Assembly (NCBI GenBank): GCA_963753035.1
Contig: CAVWAW010000019.1
Location: 67,152-131,151 of the forward strand
Direction: 5' to 3'
Source: an uncultured Acidobacteriota bacterium
GTDB lineage: Bacteria > Acidobacteriota > Thermoanaerobaculia > Thermoanaerobaculales > Sulfomarinibacteraceae
Length of the DNA: 64,000 nt
Positions 8,786 to 64,000 of this stretch are shown piece after piece; position 1 is the first letter of the stretch; each line of letters starts with the position of its first letter. The position numbers and the translations under genes were made by a program. Under the pieces are notes generated by a model that searched no databases, had not been told where the DNA came from, and was given only the letters and a program-made list of their open reading frames with translations.

Positions 8786-8950
8786 GGCGTCCCGCCCGCA
8801 GGATCGACTCCTGAATTGGCACCGGCCTTCTGCGCCGGGAGAGCAGACCGCATCGTGCCTCCCGAGGGAGCCCGGCAGCGCTATTGTGCGCAGGGCGTTG
8901 CGTCGCCGGGAGGTCGTTCCGGCACAATAGCGTGCCCGGCACCCCGATGT
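8786..8950 (+). repeat. S-family structured repeat, copy S4 (internal-deletion variant)
   Basis: Shares CACCGGCCTTCTG...CCGGGAGAGCAGACCGCATCG...GGGAGCCCGG...ATTGTGC...GGCACAAT...CCCGGCACCCC with 28631, 53290 and 36513 (rc). Lacks the H1/H2 hairpins, about 110 bp. Confidence 0.8.
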
Positions 8951-8998
8951 GGCGCGGTTTTCTTCGTGTCCTGGTGCGGTCTCGGATACGGATTCGGT

Positions 8999-12306: not shown

Positions 12307-12594
12307 GGAGTCTATAGGAATATTGCGTTCAGCGGCGCGTGCCTGGCTCTCTTTTCTTCCGACGAAAAGGTGCCTGGCACCGCACGGGAAGGGCGTTGAA
12401 AGAATCAAGTTCGGGACCACGCTTCGGGCCACATGATGCCGAACATGGTGTCCTCATCGTGGGTGGCCGAGGGAGCCACCTTTAGCATTGATCGGATTCA
12501 GCATTTTCCCTGCGTTTGCAGTGCTGGACCCGAACAATGCAAAAGATGGCACCCCGTTCGAGGTCGGTATCGCGTTCCATTGATGGGATGGTCC

Positions 12595-12624
12595 CATCCA
12601 GATCATCCAGCATCCAGCATCCAG
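12595..12624. repeat. Heptamer micro-array (CATCCAG)x4
   Basis: CATCCAGATCATCCAGCATCCAGCATCCAG ends 5 nt before the ABC-F stop codon. Confidence 0.8.
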
Positions 12625-12629
12625 CCGCG

Positions 12630-14549
12630 TTACTCCGCGAGCTGATCCTCGATGCTCTGCCACTCTTCCATGAGCTTCTCGGTCTCCTTTTGGAGATCAT
12701 CGCGTTCCTGCTGCATGGCGCGGACCTTCCCCGCGTCGGTGTCCTCGAAGAAGCCCTCGCGGCAGAATGCGGCGTCGATGGCTTCGACACGCGCCTCGGC
12801 CTTTTCGACAGCGGCGGTGACGACCTCGAGTCGCAGGGTGAGGTCTTTTCGCTGTTTCGCTCGGCGTTTTTCGTCGGCGTCAGCGGTCTTGGCACCACGC
12901 GCCCCGGCGGTTTTCTTTTTCTCCCGCTTGGCCCGAAGGGTCGTGGCATCGACATCAAGGTGGTCGTCGCCGCAGTTGGCGAGGTACTCGTCGTAGGTTC
13001 CGGCGTAGTCGTTGAGTCGATCGGGGGTGATCTCGAGGATGCGGGTTGCGAGCTGGGACACGAACCAGCGATCGTGAGCGACAAAAATCAGAGTCCCGTC
13101 GTAGGCCTTCAAAGCCTTGACCAGGGCCTCGATGGCTTCGAGATCGAGGTGGTTTGTCGGTTCGTCGAGGACCAGGACGTTTGGGCGGTCAACGGCGAGC
13201 CGGGCGAAGATCAACCGCGCGGCCTCACCGCCGGAGAGGCTCGAGACCCGTTTCTCGACCTCATCGCCCGAGAAGAGCACCTTGGCGAGCTGGGCGCGGA
13301 CCCAGCCGATGGTCTGGCCGGCACAGGCGGCGCCGAGCCAACCCTCGACGGTGCCTTCTGACTCGGCGAGGAGTTCCCGGTGATCCTGGGCGAAATACCC
13401 GGGAAAGACCTGGTGCCCCCACTCGACGGCGCCGGCATCGGCCTCGAGGTGATCCATGATGATCTTGAGCAGGGTGGACTTGCCGATCCCGTTAGGTCCG
13501 ATCACAGCCAGCCGATCGCCGCGGCGGAGGTTGAGGGACACCCTGTTCAGGACCTTCTTGTCGCCAAAGGACTTGGAGATCCCCTTGATCTCGATGACCT
13601 GCTTGCCGCTCGGGCGTTGCTGCGAGACGGTGAAGACCGGGTAGCGTCTTGAGGATCGCGGAAGCGGTTCGATGACCAGTTTTTCGATCTGCTTGATCTT
13701 GCTCTGAGCCTGCCGGGCCTTGGTGTTTTTGGCCCGAAAACGATCGACAAACGACTGGCGGTTGGCGATCTCCTTCTGCCGTTTGTCGATTTCGGCCTCG
13801 CGACGTTCGCGATCACTGCGTTTGGCCTCGGTGAAGGCGGTGAAGTTCCCGGTGTAGAGGGTGACGGTCTCATAATCGACATCGAGGATGTGGGTGCAGA
13901 CGTTGTTGAGAAAGCGATGATCGTGGGAGATCACCACCGCGCAGCCTGGGAAGTCGAGGAAAAACTTCTCGAGCCACCGAATCGAGAGAATATCGAGGTG
14001 ATTGGTGGGCTCGTCGAGAAAGAGGCAGTCGGGATCGGAGGCCAGGACCCGCGCGAGCAGAACCCGAAGCTTGAATCCACCCGACAGGGTCGAGAGGGGT
14101 TGCCGGTGTTGCTCGGATGGGATCCCGAGACCCTCGAGGATCTCTCCCGATCGGGCCTCGAACGAATAGCCGTCCAGGCTGACCACGATATCCTCGAGCT
14201 CGGCATAGCGGTCGGAGTCGAACTCGGTGTCGGCGTTCTCTAAGATGGCCTCTTTCTCGGTCATGGCCTGCCAGAGCGTTGTGTGACCCATCATCACGAC
14301 ATCGATGATCGGGAGCGCCTCGAATTGGAAATGATCCTGCTCGAGAATACCGAGACGGAGTCTGCGGGGTCGGGAGACCGCGCCGGTGCTGGGCTCATCG
14401 TTCCCCGCGAGCATGCGGAGCAGCGTCGTTTTGCCCGAGCCGTTGGCGCCGACGAGCCCATAGCGTCCGCCGGGGTTGAGCTGAAAGCTCGCACCCTGGA
14501 AGAGGGTTTGGGCGCCGAAGTCCTTGCCGAGGTCGGTTGCAGTAATCAT
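12630..14549 (-). CDS. ABC-F family ATPase (two ABC domains, no TM domain)
   Basis: Two Walker A motifs (GANGSGKTT, GPNGIGKST), two LSGG signatures, an inter-domain linker and a C-terminal coiled coil. The ATG at 14549 is preferred over the GTG at 14567. Confidence 0.9.
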   Translation of the reverse strand: MITATDLGKDFGAQTLFQGASFQLNPGGRYGLVGANGSGKTTLLRMLAGNDEPSTGAVSRPRRLRLGILEQDHFQFEALPIIDVVMMGHTTLWQAMTEKEAILENADTEFDSDRYAELEDIVVSLDGYSFEARSGEILEGLGIPSEQHRQPLSTLSGGFKLRVLLARVLASDPDCLFLDEPTNHLDILSIRWLEKFFLDFPGCAVVISHDHRFLNNVCTHILDVDYETVTLYTGNFTAFTEAKRSDRERREAEIDKRQKEIANRQSFVDRFRAKNTKARQAQSKIKQIEKLVIEPLPRSSRRYPVFTVSQQRPSGKQVIEIKGISKSFGDKKVLNRVSLNLRRGDRLAVIGPNGIGKSTLLKIIMDHLEADAGAVEWGHQVFPGYFAQDHRELLAESEGTVEGWLGAACAGQTIGWVRAQLAKVLFSGDEVEKRVSSLSGGEAARLIFARLAVDRPNVLVLDEPTNHLDLEAIEALVKALKAYDGTLIFVAHDRWFVSQLATRILEITPDRLNDYAGTYDEYLANCGDDHLDVDATTLRAKREKKKTAGARGAKTADADEKRRAKQRKDLTLRLEVVTAAVEKAEARVEAIDAAFCREGFFEDTDAGKVRAMQQERDDLQKETEKLMEEWQSIEDQLAE

Positions 14550-14567
14550 CGCCGGGGGAGGATACAC

Positions 14568-14602
14568 GATGCAGGATGCAGGATGCAGGATTCAGGATGC
14601 AG
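14568..14602. repeat. Heptamer micro-array (GATGCAG)x4 plus GATTCAG
   Basis: GATGCAGGATGCAGGATGCAGGATTCAGGATGCAG lies just upstream of the ABC-F start. It is near-inverted relative to the array at 12595. Confidence 0.8.
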
Positions 14603-14653
14603 GCACATGCCATGCGTCTCAGGAGGGACCGCGGTATGATGTGAGATCAGTTC

Positions 14654-16992: not shown

Positions 16993-17033
16993 GGGTGGGA
17001 ATGATACTCGATACGAGATCCGAGATGCAGGAT

Positions 17034-18263
17034 TCAGTCCGCCAGCCGATCCCAAATCTCCGCCATGCCTTCGTGGTGATCGGCGAAGAGACGCTGCAGA
17101 TCCGGATCGAGGTGGCCTTCCGGATCCATCCTTTCGTCACCCTCGAGGATGATCTTGCGCGCCTGGTCGTGACTGAACCCGGCCTTGTACGGGCGTGCCG
17201 AGCGGAGCGCATCGTAGATGTCCGCCAGGGCGACGATCCGCGCCTCAATGGGGATCTCCTCGCCCTGCCGCCCGTTGGGATACCCGGTTCCGTCCCAGCG
17301 CTCGTGGTGGCCGAAAGCGATGGCCGCCGCCATCTGGAGCCGGTCCGAAGATTCGAGGATCTGATAGCCGAAGTAGGGGTGCCGGTTCATCTCGGCCCGT
17401 TCGTCATCGTCGAGCGGCCCATTCTTGCGGAGGACCATCCCGTCCACGCTCATCTTGCCGACATCGTGGAGCTGAGCCGAGTATCGGATCTCGTCGCAGA
17501 ATATCGTGGGCATCCCGCACGTCTGGGCGATGAAGTAGGAATACTCATTGACCCGCAGGACATGGGACGCGGTGGCAGTGTCGTGGACCTCGGCTGCACG
17601 AGCGAGGAGGTTGATGGAGAGTTGGAACGCCTCTTCGGTTTCCTCGTGCAGGGCGGCGATCTTCGCCCTCTGCTCGGCCAGGGTCTTGTTGCGATCGCGA
17701 AGCCTGACGTTCTGCGCCTTGATTCGCCCGAGCATCTCGGCACGTTCGATGGCGCTGCCGACGATGTGGTTGACCGGGACGATAAGGCCCGCCTGCTCTT
17801 CACCAAATTCCAGCGGTCGATCGACCCCGTCGGTTCTCCGATTGATGAGCTGGACCACGCCAACGACGTTGCGGTCGTAGTTGAGCAGCGGAAAGGAAAG
17901 CATGGAACGGCTGTGATACCCGTGCCGCTTGTCGAATCGGCGATCAAACGTGTAGGGGACGCTGAGGGGAAGATCATAAAGATCCTCGACGAAAACGGTC
18001 TCTCCGGTGGTGGCGGTGAATCCGGCGATGGAGGAGGGGGTCATGGGTACGACGAACGAAGCGGGTTTCACGGCGATGACGTCATTCTGCGAGTCAGCCG
18101 CCTCGAGCCGCCGGCTGCGCCCGCGACCGCGGACGATGAAGATCGTGCCGGCTTCCGCCCCCGTGAGTTCGCGGCTCTTGAGGAGCACGCGGTGCATCAG
18201 CTTTTCGACGGACTCCGGCTTCGACGACTCGATGAACTCGAGGAATTCTCTGAGTGCGTCCAT
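17034..18263 (-). CDS. GAF-domain HD-GYP c-di-GMP phosphodiesterase
   Basis: HDVGK and HHERWDGTGYPNG motifs with an N-terminal GAF-like domain. Start at 18263 has a GGAGA RBS. Confidence 0.85.
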   Translation of the reverse strand: MDALREFLEFIESSKPESVEKLMHRVLLKSRELTGAEAGTIFIVRGRGRSRRLEAADSQNDVIAVKPASFVVPMTPSSIAGFTATTGETVFVEDLYDLPLSVPYTFDRRFDKRHGYHSRSMLSFPLLNYDRNVVGVVQLINRRTDGVDRPLEFGEEQAGLIVPVNHIVGSAIERAEMLGRIKAQNVRLRDRNKTLAEQRAKIAALHEETEEAFQLSINLLARAAEVHDTATASHVLRVNEYSYFIAQTCGMPTIFCDEIRYSAQLHDVGKMSVDGMVLRKNGPLDDDERAEMNRHPYFGYQILESSDRLQMAAAIAFGHHERWDGTGYPNGRQGEEIPIEARIVALADIYDALRSARPYKAGFSHDQARKIILEGDERMDPEGHLDPDLQRLFADHHEGMAEIWDRLAD

Positions 18264-18319: not shown

Positions 18320-18930
18320 GTCGTCGCAGGGTTGAACCGCCAAGACGCAAGAGTCGCAAAGCATCGCAGAAAACAACGCAGAGACGCAGAGGCGCAGAGA
18401 CGCAGAGGTCGGGTCCATCGGTGACGACGGTGTTTTCGTGTTCATCGTCGCCAGCCGGCCGGTCGGTTGCCCTCGTCCAAGGGCCGAGGACCCATGATTC
18501 GAGGTTTCCGAATCAGAAACGCGGCATTTCTGATTCGGAAACCTCGAATCATGGATCGCGCCTACGGCACGACCGCCCGGCCTCCGAGACGTGAATGGTG
18601 TCGTTTCGTCTCAGGGCATCCATTGAAGCCGATGGTGGACGGCCTACATATCTCAAGAATGTGGACAAGGAGCGAGACCCAGGTGGAGCCGACGCGCCGT
18701 AGGCGCGGCGTGCCTGTGAATTGTCTGGGCTGGACGAACGCTGGCGGGCGGATCGCCCAGACAATTCGCAGGTGGTGGCGGTCCGACCGACACCGACTCC
18801 ACCGCCATCATCGGCTGCGATGGATTGCGATGTCTCTGCGCCTCTGCGCCTCTGCGTTATTTATTGCGATGGCGCGACGTTGCGATGACCTCGCGTCCCT
18901 TGCGTCCTTGCGGTTCAAGAGTGATGTTCC
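18320..18930 (+). repeat. E600 element copy A: ORF-less, hairpin-rich element of about 600 bp with long inverted arms (MITE-like or ncRNA)
   Basis: Left arm GTTGAACCGCCAAGACGCAAG...(CGCAGAGR)x4 at 18331-18408. Mirrored right arm ending CTTGCGTCCTTGCGGTTCAAG at 18828-18919. Alignable by eye to 60792-61398 (rc) and 63509-end. Boundaries +/-15 bp. Confidence 0.8.
18493..18553. other. Perfect 27-bp stem / 7-nt loop hairpin (E600 H1)
   Basis: CATGATTCGAGGTTTCCGAATCAGAAA cgcggca TTTCTGATTCGGAAACCTCGAATCATG. Confidence 0.95.
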
Positions 18931-28478: not shown

Positions 28479-28630
28479 TCGATTGTCTCCATGCTGAGAA
28501 ATTCCGCCTTGGCGGAGTGCGTATGGTACCGGATTCTCGGGAGCGTTGGCCACCCCCGCCGGCGCTTTGGGTGGTGTAGCGACAGCCATCCTGGCTGTCG
28601 ACGGTGACGTGCCAGCGCACTGTCGCCGTC

Positions 28631-28890
28631 CCGGAACCTGCGTTCATCCCCGGCCTTCTGGGCCGCTGTGACGTTGTCCCAGCCGACCAGCGTCGCGCCA
28701 TCGGCGTGGTCGCACGTCGGTTGATTTAGAGGGCTGCGACCACGCCGATGGCACGCCGGCGGCCTGCTTCGTAGCCGGGAGAGCAGACCGCATCGCGCTC
28801 CCCTAGGGAGCCCGGTTGGACATTGTGCGAGGAGCGCCGCGATGCCTGGAGGCCGATCCGGCACAATGTCGAACCCGGCACCCCGGTGGA
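28631..28890 (+). repeat. S-family structured repeat, copy S1 (about 260 bp, four hairpins)
   Basis: Near-identical blocks with 53290-53550 and rc of 36513-36780. A 17-bp stem 28697-28713/28736-28752 and a 10-bp stem GACATTGTGC/GCACAATGTC 28819-28828/28861-28870. Confidence 0.85.
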
Positions 28891-28979
28891 GCGGGATTCT
28901 CCGCGTGCCCTGGACGGCTCCGGGCGCTGCCACGGACCCGCATGGTAGACTCCGTCCGTTTCAGGAGGGTGTTGCACAG

Positions 28980-36297: not shown

Positions 36298-36359
36298 ACA
36301 TCGCAATCATCGCAATTCAACGCAGAGGCGCAAAGTCGCAGAGGCGCAGAGACATCGCA
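36298..36359. repeat. Solo E600-type arm (CATCGCA / CGCAGAGG words)
   Basis: ACATCGCAATCATCGCAATTCAACGCAGAGGCGCAAAGTCGCAGAGGCGCAGAGACATCGCA. Confidence 0.6.
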
Positions 36360-36462
36360 TTTGAGAGTGGGCGAGGTGTTGCGTGGAGGCCGTCAGACAA
36401 CGTGGTGGCGCGCCTCCGAGCGGGAGGAGTCTGTAGGTGGGCCCAGGCCCACCCTACGTGCT
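36359..36462 (+). repeat. Q module (contains a GTAGGTGGGCCCAGGCCCACCCTAC hairpin)
   Basis: Alignable by eye to rc of 44202-44305. Shared blocks are CGTAGGGTGGGCCTGGGCCCACCT and CCACTCTCAAATG. Confidence 0.65.
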
Positions 36463-36512
36463 CTTCCGAGGGTACGAAAACGAGGGCGCGACTGGGCACG
36501 CGGACAACCGCG

Positions 36513-36780
36513 CCCCATCGGGCGTGCCGGGTTTGACATTGTGCCGGAACGACCACACGGCCCCGCGTCGCTCCCCGCACAATGTCATACCGGGCTCCCC
36601 CGGGGAGCGCGATGCGGTTTGCTGTTCCGGCTCCGAGGCAGGCCGCCGGCGTGCCATCGGCGTGGTCGCAGCCCTCACAATCAACCTACGCGCGACCACG
36701 CCGATGGTGCGACGCTGGGTCGCTGGGACGCCAAAGCGTCACAGCGGCCCAGAAGGCCGGTGACGAGATCAGCGTCCGGG
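36513..36780 (-). repeat. S-family structured repeat, copy S3 (inverted)
   Basis: The rc aligns block for block with S1 and S2, including the GCCATCGGCGTGGTCGC/GCGACCACGCCGATGGC stem and the GACATTGTGCCGG/CCGCACAATGTC stem. Confidence 0.85.
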
Positions 36781-36833
36781 GCAGCGTCAGGATCAACATC
36801 AGTTGACAGCCGGACGGGAGTGGGCGACTGTTC

Positions 36834-36926
36834 GCTGCCGCTGCCGCTGCCGCTGCCGCTGCCGCTGCCGCTGCCGCTGCCGCTGCCGCTGCCGCTGCCG
36901 CCGCTGCCGCCGCCGCTGCCGCTGCC
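36834..36926. repeat. Hexanucleotide microsatellite (GCTGCC)n
   Basis: About 11 perfect GCTGCC units, then degenerate GCC/GCTGCC units. Ends 8 nt from the stop of the 36934-38913 gene. Confidence 0.95.
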
Positions 36927-36933
36927 CCGGCCG

Positions 36934-44201: not shown

Positions 44202-44305
44202 CGTAGGGTGGGCCTGGGCCCACCTTCAGGTCCAATCCGGTTGGAAAAACGCCGCCACGAAGTCAGCCAACGTCCACGCTGCGTCCGATCCACTCTCAAA
44301 TGTGA
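44202..44305 (-). repeat. Q module, inverted copy
   Basis: CGTAGGGTGGGCCTGGGCCCACCTTCAGG...CCACTCTCAAATGTGATGTCT aligns with rc of 36359-36462. Confidence 0.65.
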
Positions 44306-44445
44306 TGTCTTGGCGCTTCTTTGCGATGGATGATCTTTGTGATTCAACCCTGCGATGTTGCGACGTATCTGCGGCAATCTGCGTCATCTGCGGGCAACCT
44401 GCGATGGCGCGATGGAATCCGTGTCCATCTGTGTGATCAGTGGGT
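44299..44445. repeat. Solo E600-type arm, CGCAGAT/CTGCGAT word variant
   Basis: ...GATTCAACCCTGCGATGTTGCGACGTATCTGCGGCAATCTGCGTCATCTGCGGGCAACCTGCGATGGCGCGATGGAATCCGTGTCCATCTGTGTGATC. The rc aligns with 53196-53275. Confidence 0.6.
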
Positions 44446-53275: not shown

Positions 53276-53289
53276 CTGCGGTCACGGTC

Positions 53290-53550
53290 ACGGAACCTGC
53301 CCTCATCGCCGGCCTTCTGGACCGCTGGGACGTTGTCCCAGCGGTCCAGCGTCGTGCCATCGGCGTGGTCGCTCGTGGGTTGATTGTGAGGGCTGCGACC
53401 ACGCCGATGGCACGCCGGCGGCCTGCCTCGTTGCCGGGAGAGCAGACCGCATCGCGCTCCCCGCGGGAGCCCGGTTAGAGATTGTGCGGGGAGCGCCGCG
53501 AAGCCTGGAGGTCGATCCGGCACAATGTCAAACCCGGCACGCCCGGTGGA
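53290..53550 (+). repeat. S-family structured repeat, copy S2
   Basis: Perfect 13-bp hairpin 53319-53347 (GGACCGCTGGGAC gtt GTCCCAGCGGTCC) and a 20-bp stem 53353-53372/53395-53414. Blocks shared with S1, S3 and S4. Confidence 0.85.
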
Positions 53551-53590
53551 GGCGCGGTCCGCGGGTTCTGTAGAGGTCGTGGGTACGGTC

Positions 53591-53657
53591 GCTGCCGCTG
53601 CCGCTGCCGCTGCCGCTGCTGCTGCTGCTGCTGCCACTGCCACTGTCACGGTCACGG
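53591..53657. repeat. Hexamer/trimer microsatellite (GCTGCC)4 (GCT)5 (GCCACT)2 GTCACGGTCACGG
   Basis: Directly readable. Ends 26 nt upstream of the ATG at 53683. GGTCACGGTCACGG also occurs at 53280-53293, on the other side of S2. Confidence 0.9.
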
Positions 53658-59543: not shown

Positions 59544-60791
59544 ATGAGAACAGCGATCGTTGCGGCGATCGGGGCGCTCCTCGTCGGTCCGGCGACGCCG
59601 TTCGCGAAATCCGACACCGATCGGCTGCACTACTTCGCGGTCAACGGCAGCGGTGTTCTGAGCTCGGCCAAGGCCGATCTGCCGGTGAACCCGGCGTCGG
59701 TGGTCAAAATCGCAACGACGTTGTGGGCCCTCGCTGAACTCGAGGCCGGTCATCGCTTCACCACCTCGATCGGGTATCTCGGAAGCTGGGACCCATCCTC
59801 GGGCGTTTTGGTCGGCGATCTTGTGATCCGCGGAGGGGACGACCCGGATTTCCAGTGGGAAAACGCCTTCCTCGTGGCGCGTGAGCTCAACCGGCTCGGC
59901 CTGCGCCGAGTGGAGGGCCGGGTTCTGGTTCAGGGACGATTCTGGCTTGGCTGGGAGCACGGGGTGGAAAAACGGGTGACCGATCCGACCCAATTGGCTG
60001 AGAAGATGGGCCGCAGGCTCATCGGCACCCTGGATCCGGTCAGGTGGACCCGCTCCCAGCTCAATACCTGGAAGGCGCTGTGCGAGCGGCGTGGTTGGGA
60101 CATCACGCGCAGGCCGCAGGTGAAAGTCACCGGAGGGGCGCGTTTTGACACGCTGCGCGACGCAACGCCGATGCTCGTCCACCGCTCGAACCCACTCGAA
60201 GTCATCATGCGGCGCTTCAACGTCTACTCCAACAACGACATCGTCCGAGTGGCGGACGGGATCGGCACGCTGGACGAGTTCGAGGCCTTCGTCACCCGGC
60301 GTCTCGGTGTCGAACCGGGTCGGATCGAGCTCGAGACGGCGTCGGGTGAGCGCCGCAACCGGATGACCGTGCAGCAGATGGCGGGTCTTCTGACCGAGCT
60401 CGATATCGAGGCCGAAGAACAGGGGCTCGAGGTCCAGAAGTTGCTGCCCGTTCTCGGCTGCGACCCCGGCCACACAAGACGGATGTTTCCCGCTTTGGCC
60501 GAGCCCGAGTTCGCGGGGGCGGTGACCTGCAAGACGGGGACCTTGACCCATACCGATGGCGGGGTGGCGGTCCTGGCGGGGATCTTCACCAGTCCGACCA
60601 ACGGACCGGTGGTCTTCGCCATCGCCGCGCCCGGGGCCGGCGGTAAGCTCGACTACTGGCGGATGATCCAACAGCGGTGGATCCTCGACCTCATCGCCGA
60701 GTCGGGCGGGGCGGTGACGACACCCTGCGGCGATCCGCTGCCGTTCTCCGACACCTTCGCCGAGATCGAGGTCGTCGCCGGCGGAGAATAA
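59544..60791 (+). CDS. dacB: D-alanyl-D-alanine carboxypeptidase/endopeptidase, PBP4 (S13) family
   Basis: SxxK (PASVVK), SxN (YSNND) and KTG (CKTGTL) motifs, plus GDLVIRGGDDPDF. Trimmed to the Met at 59544. Confidence 0.85.
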   Translation: MRTAIVAAIGALLVGPATPFAKSDTDRLHYFAVNGSGVLSSAKADLPVNPASVVKIATTLWALAELEAGHRFTTSIGYLGSWDPSSGVLVGDLVIRGGDDPDFQWENAFLVARELNRLGLRRVEGRVLVQGRFWLGWEHGVEKRVTDPTQLAEKMGRRLIGTLDPVRWTRSQLNTWKALCERRGWDITRRPQVKVTGGARFDTLRDATPMLVHRSNPLEVIMRRFNVYSNNDIVRVADGIGTLDEFEAFVTRRLGVEPGRIELETASGERRNRMTVQQMAGLLTELDIEAEEQGLEVQKLLPVLGCDPGHTRRMFPALAEPEFAGAVTCKTGTLTHTDGGVAVLAGIFTSPTNGPVVFAIAAPGAGGKLDYWRMIQQRWILDLIAESGGAVTTPCGDPLPFSDTFAEIEVVAGGE

Positions 60792-61398
60792 CGCAGAGCC
60801 GCAGAGGCGCAGAGACATCGCACATCGCAGTTTCACCGCAAAGACGCCAGGAACGCCAAGACCATCGCAACCGATGATCGCGGTGGAGTCGGTGTCGGTC
60901 GGACCGCCACCACTGCTGCTTCATGTGCTCGCATCGAACGCGGCGTTCGTGACGAGCACATGAAGCAGCAGCTCGCCGCGCCTACGGCGCGCCGGCTCCG
61001 CCTGGGTTTCGCTCTCCATCAACTCTATCCAAATGAGGGACCTCGATCTGGAGGAGATCCAATACCCAAGAAGCTGTGGAGGCAGGATGGTCGTGCTGAA
61101 AGCACGATCCGAGACTCGTGAGATCAGATTCCGAAACGCCGCGCTTCGGAATCTGATCTCACGGGTCTTGGGTCCTCGGCCCCGGGACGAGGGCCACCGT
61201 CCGGCCGGTTGACGATCACGAACACGGTTTGGCCGAGGTCGGTACCGGGCCCGATCCGTGTTCATCCACCGAATCAGTGACCATCCGTGTCCCATTGCGA
61301 TGATGCGATGTCTCTGCGTCTCCGCGTCTCTGCGTCTCTGCGTTGAACTGCGATGTCTTGGCGATCTTGGCGTCGTTGCGGTTCAACCCGTGATGTGA
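60792..61398 (-). repeat. E600 element copy B (inverted relative to copy A)
   Basis: Begins right after the dacB stop with CGCAGAGCCGCAGAGGCGCAGAGACATCGCA. The right arm ends GTTGCGGTTCAAC at 61386. Hairpins at 60913-60971 (19-bp stem) and 61113-61167 (23-bp stem). Confidence 0.8.
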
Positions 61399-63508: not shown

Positions 63509-64000
63509 TCCATCGCAGGGTCGAACCGCAAATACGCGAAGTTCGCAAAGCATCGCTGCGTCGCACCATCGCAAAGATCTAACGCAGAGACGCAGAGACG
63601 CAGAGACATCGCACCATCGCAATGGGACACGGATCGACACGGATGTGGCGGATCGGCACGGATCGGGCCCAGTTCCAATCTCGGCTAACTCGGTCTCGGG
63701 GTCGTCAACCGGCCGGACGGTTGCCCTCGTCCAAGGGCCGAGGACCCATGACCCGTGAGATCCGATTTCCAAACGCGGCGCTTGAAAATCGGATCTCACG
63801 GGTCATGGATCGTACCTACGGCACGACCGTCCGGCCTCCAGAGATTGAGGGGGCAGGTCCGACGCTGCCAGAAATCTGTCGCCCCGTCAGAGAATTTGGG
63901 ATGGGTTCAATAGTACTTTTCGCCTACCTCAGCGTCAGCCCTATTCGATCGGGAGTCGAACCCCAGTACAGATAGAGCGCCTTGCCCGAAATCAACTCGG
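63509..64000 (+). repeat. E600 element copy C (same orientation as A; truncated by the window edge)
   Basis: Left arm GGTCGAACCGCAAATACGCGAAG...(CGCAGAGA)x3 follows the pyrD stop. The hairpin at 63747-63807 has a stem of about 26 bp. Flanking blocks are shared with copies A and B. Confidence 0.8.

Follow-up and report, generated by a model that had tools for sequence, protein, structure and literature searches.

A family of structured, mosaic intergenic repeats in uncultured sediment Acidobacteriota that probably acts in RNA

Introduction

An intriguing question raised by this genome of an uncultured acidobacterium is why one non-coding sequence of about 300 nt, bearing several long hairpins, should recur at four separate places within 64,000 nt. 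That stretch of DNA, referred to here in its full length as the window, carries four copies of the repeat, S1, S2, S3 and S4, which were first noticed in a sequence-only reading of the DNA. Most known structured interspersed repeats come from Proteobacteria and Firmicutes. BOX of Streptococcus pneumoniae, ERIC (IRU) of enterobacteria and Correia (NIME) of Neisseria are modular, structured intergenic repeats of 100-300 nt; individual modules (boxA, boxB, boxC) may be missing or repeated, and the elements are co-transcribed with their neighbors in variable orientation. S is a new family of structured intergenic repeats, and the kind to which it belongs is already known from REP/BIME, BOX, ERIC and Correia/NIME. 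It is a large and well-supported family in a poorly studied, abundant sediment phylum, and it is unusual in that its fold goes well beyond a REP hairpin in complexity, one copy (S1) is more conserved than the adjacent proteins, and the repeat recurs beside an Avd-like gene family.

Results

Four copies of one repeat in the window

Three of the copies are full-length. S1 (~28622..28915, plus strand) comprises a 5' leader, a 5' domain, a 3' domain and a tail hairpin, and was delimited by nhmmer, by alignment and by its ortholog in the related MAG contig L081. S2 (~53285..53560, plus strand) was placed by nhmmer and pairwise identity, and its orthologous site is filled in contig L085. S3 (~36494..36790, minus strand; nhmmer) lies in the convergent gap between yidD and a phosphodiesterase gene. 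The fourth copy, S4 (~8821..8985, plus strand; nhmmer), consists of the 3' domain only, hairpins H1 and H2 having been deleted in a clean loss of the entire 5' domain that leaves CACCGGCCTTCTG fused straight to CGCCGGGAGAG.

S1 and S2 share 90% identity over 263-271 nt, S3 is 84-86% identical to each of them, and S4 aligns with the other copies over the 3' half of the unit only, at 75-79% identity. With an nhmmer profile the E-values range from 1e-79 to 1e-92 for S1-S3 and from 5e-40 to 5e-48 for S4, and the 22-base core pattern CATCGNGCN{9,12}GAGCCCGGN{5,8}TTGTGCG has four matches in the window and none in 100 shuffles. The profile search returned no fifth copy in the window. These measures agree with the initial proposal that S1-S4 form one family, each copy lying where it had been placed. 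Other parts of that description needed revision: the conserved unit is longer than the ~260 bp first given, at about 295-310 nt, and H1 of S2, described as a perfect 13-bp stem, is a perfect stem of 15 bp (53317-53331 with 53335-53349). The H2 stem, said to be the same in S1-S3, is so except for one arm in S3, where A replaces the first G.

All four copies are intergenic, as had been claimed, according to both ORF and Pfam calls, and their flanking genes are ordinary (FG-GAP protein and sulfatase; GATase; yidD and phosphodiesterase; MeaB and radical-SAM protein). S1 and S2 occupy divergent promoter gaps; in each case a start codon on the same strand follows 96-140 nt downstream. S3 is bordered on each side by a gene end. 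S4 runs antisense to both of its neighbors, and 14 nt separate its 3' end from the stop codon of MeaB, which is convergent to it. A protein-coding reading of S was rejected, as indels of 1-2 nt separate the copies and an ATG-like word in the leader is not kept. S is also not an assembly artefact, a concern voiced with the first description, because the family is found in independent assemblies and S1 has an ortholog at the corresponding position of a MAG contig of 504 kb. Next to S4, at 8786-8819, lies a distinct REP-like hairpin with a CGTC tag.

The fold and its covariation

S is maintained by selection as a folded single strand. The fold was obtained with RNAalifold and hand curation on an alignment of 62 full copies (A3) and contains 61 pairs, in which 93.6% of the cells are standard pairs versus 24-43% when the partners are slid. 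Compensatory changes that keep the helices, the general mark of a structured element, occur at 20 of the 61 pairs, which change on both sides (145 cells); the observed values were reached by none of 500 shuffles. Mutual information returned the same helices and, beyond them, only subfamily correlations, with no additional long-range or pseudoknot pairs. The 5' box and the H2 loop may also pair, and both sides are invariant there, so that covariation is uninformative.

In S1, the 5' domain begins with an invariant box, CCGGCCTTCTGG (28650..28661, plus strand, from the alignment). The domain is predicted to be closed by pairing of the GGCC at 28652-28655 with a second GGCC about 110 nt downstream, at 28761-28764, which would create a three-way junction with H1 and H2; these bases are invariant in 61-62 of the 62 copies, so no covariation signal is possible. 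H1 (28657..28689, plus strand) is a hairpin of variable length, 15-17 bp, in which 9 of 17 pairs change on both sides, and 14 copies have a short variant of 7-8 bp. H2 (28697..28752, plus strand) has 16-17 bp and a conserved 22-nt loop (GGTTGATT..GAGGGCT), with a short invariant stem beneath it. Six of its 16 pairs change on both sides, including exchanges of G-C to A-U (45:15) and of C-G to G-C (46:13).

The 3' domain includes a conserved and mostly unpaired stretch (TGCYTCGTAGCCGGRASAGCAGACCGCATCGCGC) with a 3-bp mini-hairpin (28765..28809, plus strand, from alignment and fold). Downstream of this stretch, covariation and mutual information define a long helix of about 19 bp (28810..28879, plus strand) made up of GCCCGGY/RCCCGGC and H4. 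The helix contains a C-C mismatch, itself conserved, and its tip, about 33 nt, differs from copy to copy. At the base of the helix, columns 232/291 are U-A in 31 copies versus C-G in 28, and four more pairs covary. The separate hairpin H3 that had been proposed here (CCGGG...CCCGG around CTCCC/GGGAG) did not hold up: it shows no covariation, does no better than shuffles, and has 2 of 10 pairs broken in half of the copies. The CCCGG on the 3' side of that hairpin instead pairs with the ACCCGGC that follows H4, forming one ~19-bp helix with it. The unit ends in a tail hairpin (28889..28909, plus strand), GCGGG-ATTCT-CCGC in S1 and GCGCGG-TTTT-CCGCGT in the consensus, which was read from the alignment in a gappy region that provides no pair counts.

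Neither strand is clearly favored. The folding energy of the whole core is alike on both (-146 vs -151 kcal/mol), and strand tests based on G-U versus A-C counts and on folding of both strands disagree by helix, with H1 better on the complement, H2 and the tail hairpin better on the given strand, and H4 equal. A tRNA-like or T-loop resemblance on the complement (GGTTCGA) was considered and dropped, as it is not kept across subtypes.

Distribution

The S family is common in uncultured sediment Acidobacteriota. A flexible form of the core pattern occurs in 77 JGI metagenome contigs. A stricter form identified two GTDB genomes, both MAGs of uncultured Acidobacteriota with two copies each, and this genome count is a lower bound, as the stricter pattern is one base longer than the common form of the motif and misses the window's own copies. 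The profile search over the window and 80 fetched loci (320 kb) gave 141 matches, of which about 110 are real; 73 of the real matches are non-redundant and near full length. Copies are present as well on the related MAG contigs L081, L083 and L085. A single pattern match in a viral contig (L080) proved to be a chance match within a helix-turn-helix gene.

Comparison with described families

The family had not been recognised from its sequence, and it matches no Rfam family, plasmid or phage. A cmscan of the whole window against Rfam 15 at gathering thresholds gave zero matches, and in E-value mode S1 returned only chance matches to long-hairpin models, such as plant microRNA precursors (25 bits against a 77.5-bit cut-off). 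BLAST of S1 against 72,556 plasmids and 50,697 phage records found nothing.

The hallmarks of known element types were compared with S one type at a time. As regards MITEs, terminal inverted repeats are absent from the consensus ends and from 41 aligned 5' flanks, all inverted repeats being internal hairpins, and among 1891 pairs of copies no burst of near-identical copies is seen (maximum identity 95.7%, median 73%). Target duplication is not clearly present, and the hexamer flanks make direct repeats (e.g., GTCACGGTCACGG at S2) indistinguishable from array sequence. The 20-40 nt palindrome with a GTAG or CGTC tag that typifies REP/BIME was not found in S, in which CGTC words are internal and do not form an end tag, and no gene for a RAYT (Y1/HUH) transposase was seen adjoining S in the window or the fetched loci. 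Nor does S have the sharp ends or the tnpA/tnpB neighbors of IS200/IS605 PATEs or orphan guide-RNA scaffolds; its edges fade, no tnpA or tnpB lies near the 80 loci, and no transposase recurs among 161 neighboring proteins at those loci. Diversity-generating retroelements (DGRs) are likewise a poor match, with no YxDD or QGxxSP motif in any frame of the window or L001-L080 and no reverse-transcriptase Pfam family among the genes called in L081-L083. A scan for sigma-70-type promoters and for intrinsic terminators found neither at S1, and the flanks are not conserved, which argues for co-transcription and against an independent small-RNA gene.

Conservation in place and turnover of sites

The copies are old. 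Their median pairwise identity is 73%, and the maximum of 95.7% is between two adjacent copies. Column conservation is uneven, with 29 unpaired columns at least 95% conserved and 26 columns at most 60% conserved, and so the alignment does not look like neutral decay of dead copies. S is probably functional.

The S1 site is under strong purifying selection that extends along the whole copy. The 504-kb MAG contig L081 is syntenic with the window at 85-90% identity and carries S1 at the corresponding place, with its orientation unchanged (17915-18226); there the core, 28640-28890 of the window, matches at 246 of 251 positions (98%). Both genes that flank S1, compared with their L081 counterparts, are 72% identical (70-74%) at third codon positions and 92-95% identical at first and second positions. 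The difference between the core and the third-position rate (binomial P about 3e-28) is the basis for concluding that purifying selection acts on S1. The H4 tip, which differs between paralogs, is identical in the S1 orthologs of the window and L081. Conservation of this type is not general: in further putative ortholog pairs, the core of S and the sequence on either side of it are conserved to about the same degree.

Other sites have changed between relatives. The gap between yidD and the phosphodiesterase gene holds one copy in the window (S3), oriented toward yidD; one copy in the opposite orientation in L051, whose neighboring genes are 91% identical; and two tandem copies, again oriented opposite to S3, together with an extra gene in L081. 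Between L051 and L081, the yidD-gap copies share only 75% identity. The S2 site is filled in L085, an ortholog context of 86% identity, and empty in the more distant L087 (76%), in which the gap measures 195 nt. S appears to be absent from L086 as well, where the upstream region contains an assembly gap.

Modularity and flanking arrays

S has no sharp ends; its edges fade gradually into hexamer microsatellites. Hexanucleotide arrays flank S at most loci, with GCTGYC-like units on the 5' side and CGGNNN- or GTCACG-like units on the 3' side. In the window, examples read from the sequence are the hexamer microsatellite 3' of S2 (53590..53657, plus strand) and the (GCTGCC)n microsatellite adjoining the 5' end of S3 (36833..36930, plus strand). 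S2 is also bracketed by the 13-nt direct repeat GTCACGGTCACGG, at 53281-53293 and 53645-53657.

Deletion variants are precise to the hairpin. Some copies are without H2 only, with the same junction in L007 and L010, and other variants have lost both H1 and H2, retain nothing but the 5' domain, or have ~90 nt inserted in H2. According to our own reading of the nhmmer coordinates, pairs of copies less than ~700 nt apart are nearly always co-oriented, and pairs more than 1 kb apart are split about evenly. A separate repeat in the window, at 12467-12563, has a layout like that of the S 3' domain, with compensating changes in its long helix, and repeats of this type adjoin S in several loci.

Gene context

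Among the approximately 110 copies, orientation relative to the neighboring genes is mixed, and all four combinations occur. The downstream gene shares the strand of S in ~33 cases and lies on the other strand in ~28, and the neighbors are unrelated housekeeping genes, so that the constant orientation and coherent gene set of a cis-regulatory leader are absent. The earlier judgment that a dedicated cis-regulatory role lacks support is thus borne out, whereas the 'sense' orientation that had been ascribed to S1 and S2 carries no weight, because a divergent gap makes either orientation sense to one gene. Of 28 copies with a convergent neighbor, 11, S4/MeaB included, have that gene's stop codon 13-57 nt beyond the CCCGGCAC motif, which is located close to the 3' end of S; upstream stop codons of co-directional genes are never less than 66 nt from the S 5' end. 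S1 and S2 appear to lie upstream of putative -10 elements of their downstream genes. If these elements are correctly placed, S would enter those mRNAs by read-through only.

A four-helix-bundle gene beside S

At 13 loci outside the window, a gene for a protein of 122-134 aa has its stop codon facing the S 3' end, always on the opposite strand and in most of these loci within about 35 nt of S. Given this arrangement, the gene would have the complement of S as its 3' UTR. Its product belongs to PF05635 (23S rRNA intervening-sequence protein; E = 9e-16) and TIGR02436 (four helix bundle protein; E = 2.5e-16), and the closest solved structure is 2GSC. According to a published analysis (PMC10053308), this family is similar to Avd of DGRs, a protein that works together with an RNA and a reverse transcriptase.

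The gene family is highly multi-copy, with 3828 database proteins at E <= 1e-10 and more than 120 clusters at an identity of at least 77%, and the gene unit opens with a long hairpin that pairs the ribosome-binding site and start codon. The unit next to S may be present or absent (L027 vs L055), and it also exists without S in L082, where it is bracketed by a ~90-nt direct repeat of hexamer array. About 85% of the S-bearing loci, including all four window copies, are without a nearby four-helix-bundle gene.

Discussion

What, then, does S do, and how does it come to be in so many places? The sequence comparisons suggest that S is a new BIME/BOX-like structured mosaic repeat that probably acts in RNA. 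Tentatively, and with a probability of roughly 0.4, we favor the reading that S serves as RNA-level punctuation in read-through transcripts and spreads slowly via its flanking arrays by local duplication, deletion and inversion. S would be carried into the transcript by whichever neighbor's transcription reads through it, and its very stable helices would form about equally from either strand. Once formed, the helices would block exonucleases, offer double-strand-specific nucleases a cut site, or terminate or insulate transcripts. RNA punctuation of this type is the mode of action assumed for E. coli REP/BIME, ERIC and pneumococcal BOX. S would spread and disappear slowly, having no transposase of its own; the adjacency of hexanucleotide microsatellites on both sides suggests that they may mediate local tandem duplication, deletion and inversion, and slippage at the hairpin bases may delete single hairpins. 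One finding does not sit well with punctuation, as the long unpaired stretches CCGGCCTTCTGG, CAGCGTCGC, CGCCGGCGGCCTGCC and ACCGCATCGCGC are near-invariant, which generic hairpins do not explain. Together with the H4 tip that is identical in orthologs, these stretches point to sequence-specific recognition.

The resemblance to REP/BIME of Enterobacteria and Pseudomonas is considerable. Those repeats, like S, are intergenic, multi-copy and GC-rich, have hairpins with compensatory changes, occur singly or in clusters, are mosaic or modular, and often lie just beyond stop codons; they are thought to act in RNA, through stabilisation or termination, and possibly in DNA, and S may be likened to them in this respect as well. 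REP units, however, are single palindromes of 20-40 nt with a GTAG or CGTC tag and are linked to RAYT transposases (PMC3733652). S differs in being a single ~300-nt unit that combines three long helices with a junction and with extended unpaired boxes that are conserved, and no RAYT gene was seen nearby. It shares with BOX, ERIC and Correia a modular, structured, intergenic nature and variable orientation, but the sequences are not similar. Terminal inverted repeats are a feature of Correia and ERIC, and target duplications of Correia; S has no terminal inverted repeats and no clear target duplication. The S copies are also much more diverged (median 73%) than those of BOX, ERIC or Correia, and yet one ortholog pair is 98% conserved.

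An alternative explanation is that S is a non-autonomous mobile element, similar to REP/BIME or PATEs, whose single-stranded DNA is moved by a tyrosine (HUH) transposase encoded elsewhere, with the conserved unpaired boxes as the recognition and cleavage sites of the transposase. S is certainly dispersed and multi-copy (about 110 copies in 320 kb), folds about equally on both strands and, as in IS200/IS605-type elements, has neither terminal inverted repeats nor a clear target duplication. IS200/IS605-derived PATEs and orphan TnpB guide-RNA scaffolds are like S in this absence, in having hairpins near their ends and in a structured RNA, putative for S, of 150-300 nt. RAYT-like tyrosine transposases have been reported in Acidobacteria (PMC3733652), and the turnover of sites, with the S2 site empty in L087 and the S3 site holding different copies in opposite orientation across three related genomes, is what a mobile element might leave behind. 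We nevertheless consider this explanation unlikely. The copies include no near-identical ones (maximum 95.7%, median 73%), and so there is no sign of recent transposition, and the conservation of S1 in place greatly exceeds that of neutral sites. Unlike PATEs and TnpB scaffolds, S has no tnpA or tnpB, nor any recurrent transposase, beside its 80 loci, its edges fade instead of ending sharply, and it matches none of the Rfam families of this kind. Moreover, the nearly constant co-orientation of close copies fits tandem duplication better than independent insertions.

A further possibility, which we regard as doubtful, is that S is a family of functional structured RNAs of ~300 nt, with the variable H4 tip providing copy specificity, that form ribonucleoprotein complexes with the Avd-like four-helix-bundle proteins. 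The unpaired boxes are strongly conserved, and the H4 tip varies between paralogs while remaining identical in S1 orthologs, both of which favor this reading, and the abutting gene on the opposite strand at the S 3' end in 13 loci encodes a protein resembling DGR Avd, a partner of RNA and reverse transcriptase (PMC10053308). That gene is missing, however, from ~85% of the S loci, including those of all window copies, and its unit occurs without S in L082. The S ends show no conserved promoter or terminator, no strand is clearly favored, and the window and L001-L080 contain no reverse-transcriptase motif. In Leptospira and Coxiella, 23S rRNA intervening sequences carry a PF05635 ORF. Such intervening sequences and the avd-TR region of DGRs resemble the S loci in pairing a PF05635/TIGR02436 gene with a highly base-paired non-coding segment, but S is not located in rRNA, has no template/variable repeat pair and no reverse-transcriptase motif nearby, and mostly occurs without the PF05635 gene, just as the gene occurs without S. 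If S did prove to be the RNA partner of the four-helix-bundle proteins, it would represent a new system of RNA-protein modules, mobile or regulatory, in Acidobacteriota. It would then supply the first functional context for PF05635 outside DGRs and an experimental route into both.

It is improbable that S acts as double-stranded DNA, either as a binding platform or as a cruciform insulator between transcription units, comparable to gyrase or IHF at BIMEs. Although the mixed orientation, the similar stability of both strands, the sequence-level conservation of the boxes and the location of S1 and S2 in divergent promoter gaps would suit such a role, and H1 is a near-perfect palindrome with a loop of 3-4 nt, the H2 and H4 loops of 22-33 nt make poor cruciform formers, the compensatory changes preserve pairing and not a binding word, and hairpin length varies freely, as in the long and short forms of H1. 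Least credible of all, and contradicted by the context statistics, is a riboswitch-like cis-regulatory leader of the downstream gene: the large conserved structure and the position of S1 and S2 96-140 nt upstream of same-strand start codons are offset by the near balance of strands among downstream genes (~33 vs ~28), by S3 between two gene ends and S4 antisense to both neighbors, by the functional unrelatedness of the neighbors, and by the occurrence of S in tandem.

With RNA-level punctuation as the preferred reading, S has a further, practical side. Many of the fetched contigs terminate within an S copy, and for this reason S and the repeat families surrounding it probably break short-read assemblies of these genomes.

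Repeats and a gene unit associated with S

A second repeat family, R2 (window 12467-12563, + strand), shares its layout with the 3' domain of S, the structured intergenic repeat of about 300 nt. In both, GAGGGAGCC-ACC is followed by a long helix and then by GGCACCCCG, with compensating changes present. Segments with 80-86% identity to R2 adjoin S in L014, L019, L031, L043 and L077 (L numbers denote loci fetched from elsewhere, L081 and L083 being contigs of related MAGs), and a (CATCCAG)n array lies 3' of R2 in the window (12600-12630).

A multi-copy unit carrying a four-helix-bundle gene (PF05635/TIGR02436), which resembles the Avd protein of diversity-generating retroelements, is found at L052 (4149-4520) and L081 (10001-10405) and in L023, L066, L027, L021, L007, L037, L009, L034, L017, L082 and L083; the window holds no copy. 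The 5' end of the unit is a long hairpin that pairs the ribosome-binding site and start codon. The unit is mostly arranged tail-to-tail with S, and in L082 it stands alone with direct repeats of about 90 nt on either side.

Both S and the four-helix-bundle units are flanked on either side by hexanucleotide microsatellites (GCTGCC, GCTGTC, GTCACG, CGGNNN; window 36833-36930, 53590-53657 and 1444-1572), which make up much of the intergenic space and occur in most fetched loci too. Their length varies between orthologous sites, the array beside window copy S1 being about 90 nt longer in L081.

Short hairpins and other repeat arrays

Directly 5' of S4, the window copy comprising the 3' domain only, is a REP-like short hairpin with a CGTC tag, CCGTCGTTGTGGTGCGGGCGTCCCGCCCGCAGGA (8786-8819). 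It recurs at L002 4436-4470 and L001 291-325, words resembling it occur in the flanks of L015, L034, L004 and L040, and a related word, GGGCGGGCATTGTGGRGGCGGGCTTCC, is found 3' of many S copies. A 119-nt inverted repeat pair (window 36340-36458 and 44202-44320; 72% complementary) has one arm between yidD and S3, and the hairpin GTAGGTGGGCCCAGGCCCACCCTAC that forms part of it is also present in the L024 and L078 flanks.

Another family, of about 265 nt with a long palindrome inside, forms an inverted pair (window 61071-61335 and 63582-63846) whose arms are 82% complementary and 2.2 kb apart; relatives lie at window 18437-18585 and L051 3622-4203. Octamer arrays of GCAGAGAC/GCAGAGGC (window 18374-18416, 36318-36360, 60789-60823, 63580-63622 and 61296-61343) are mostly next to CATCGCA words near gene ends, and a related array, GCAGATAG, lies ahead of S in L051. 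Heptamer arrays of (GATGCAG)n, or (CAGGATG)n when read in a different phase, occupy window 14555-14612 and 16997-17054; their word is probably identical to the CsrA-binding repeat of CsrB RNA.
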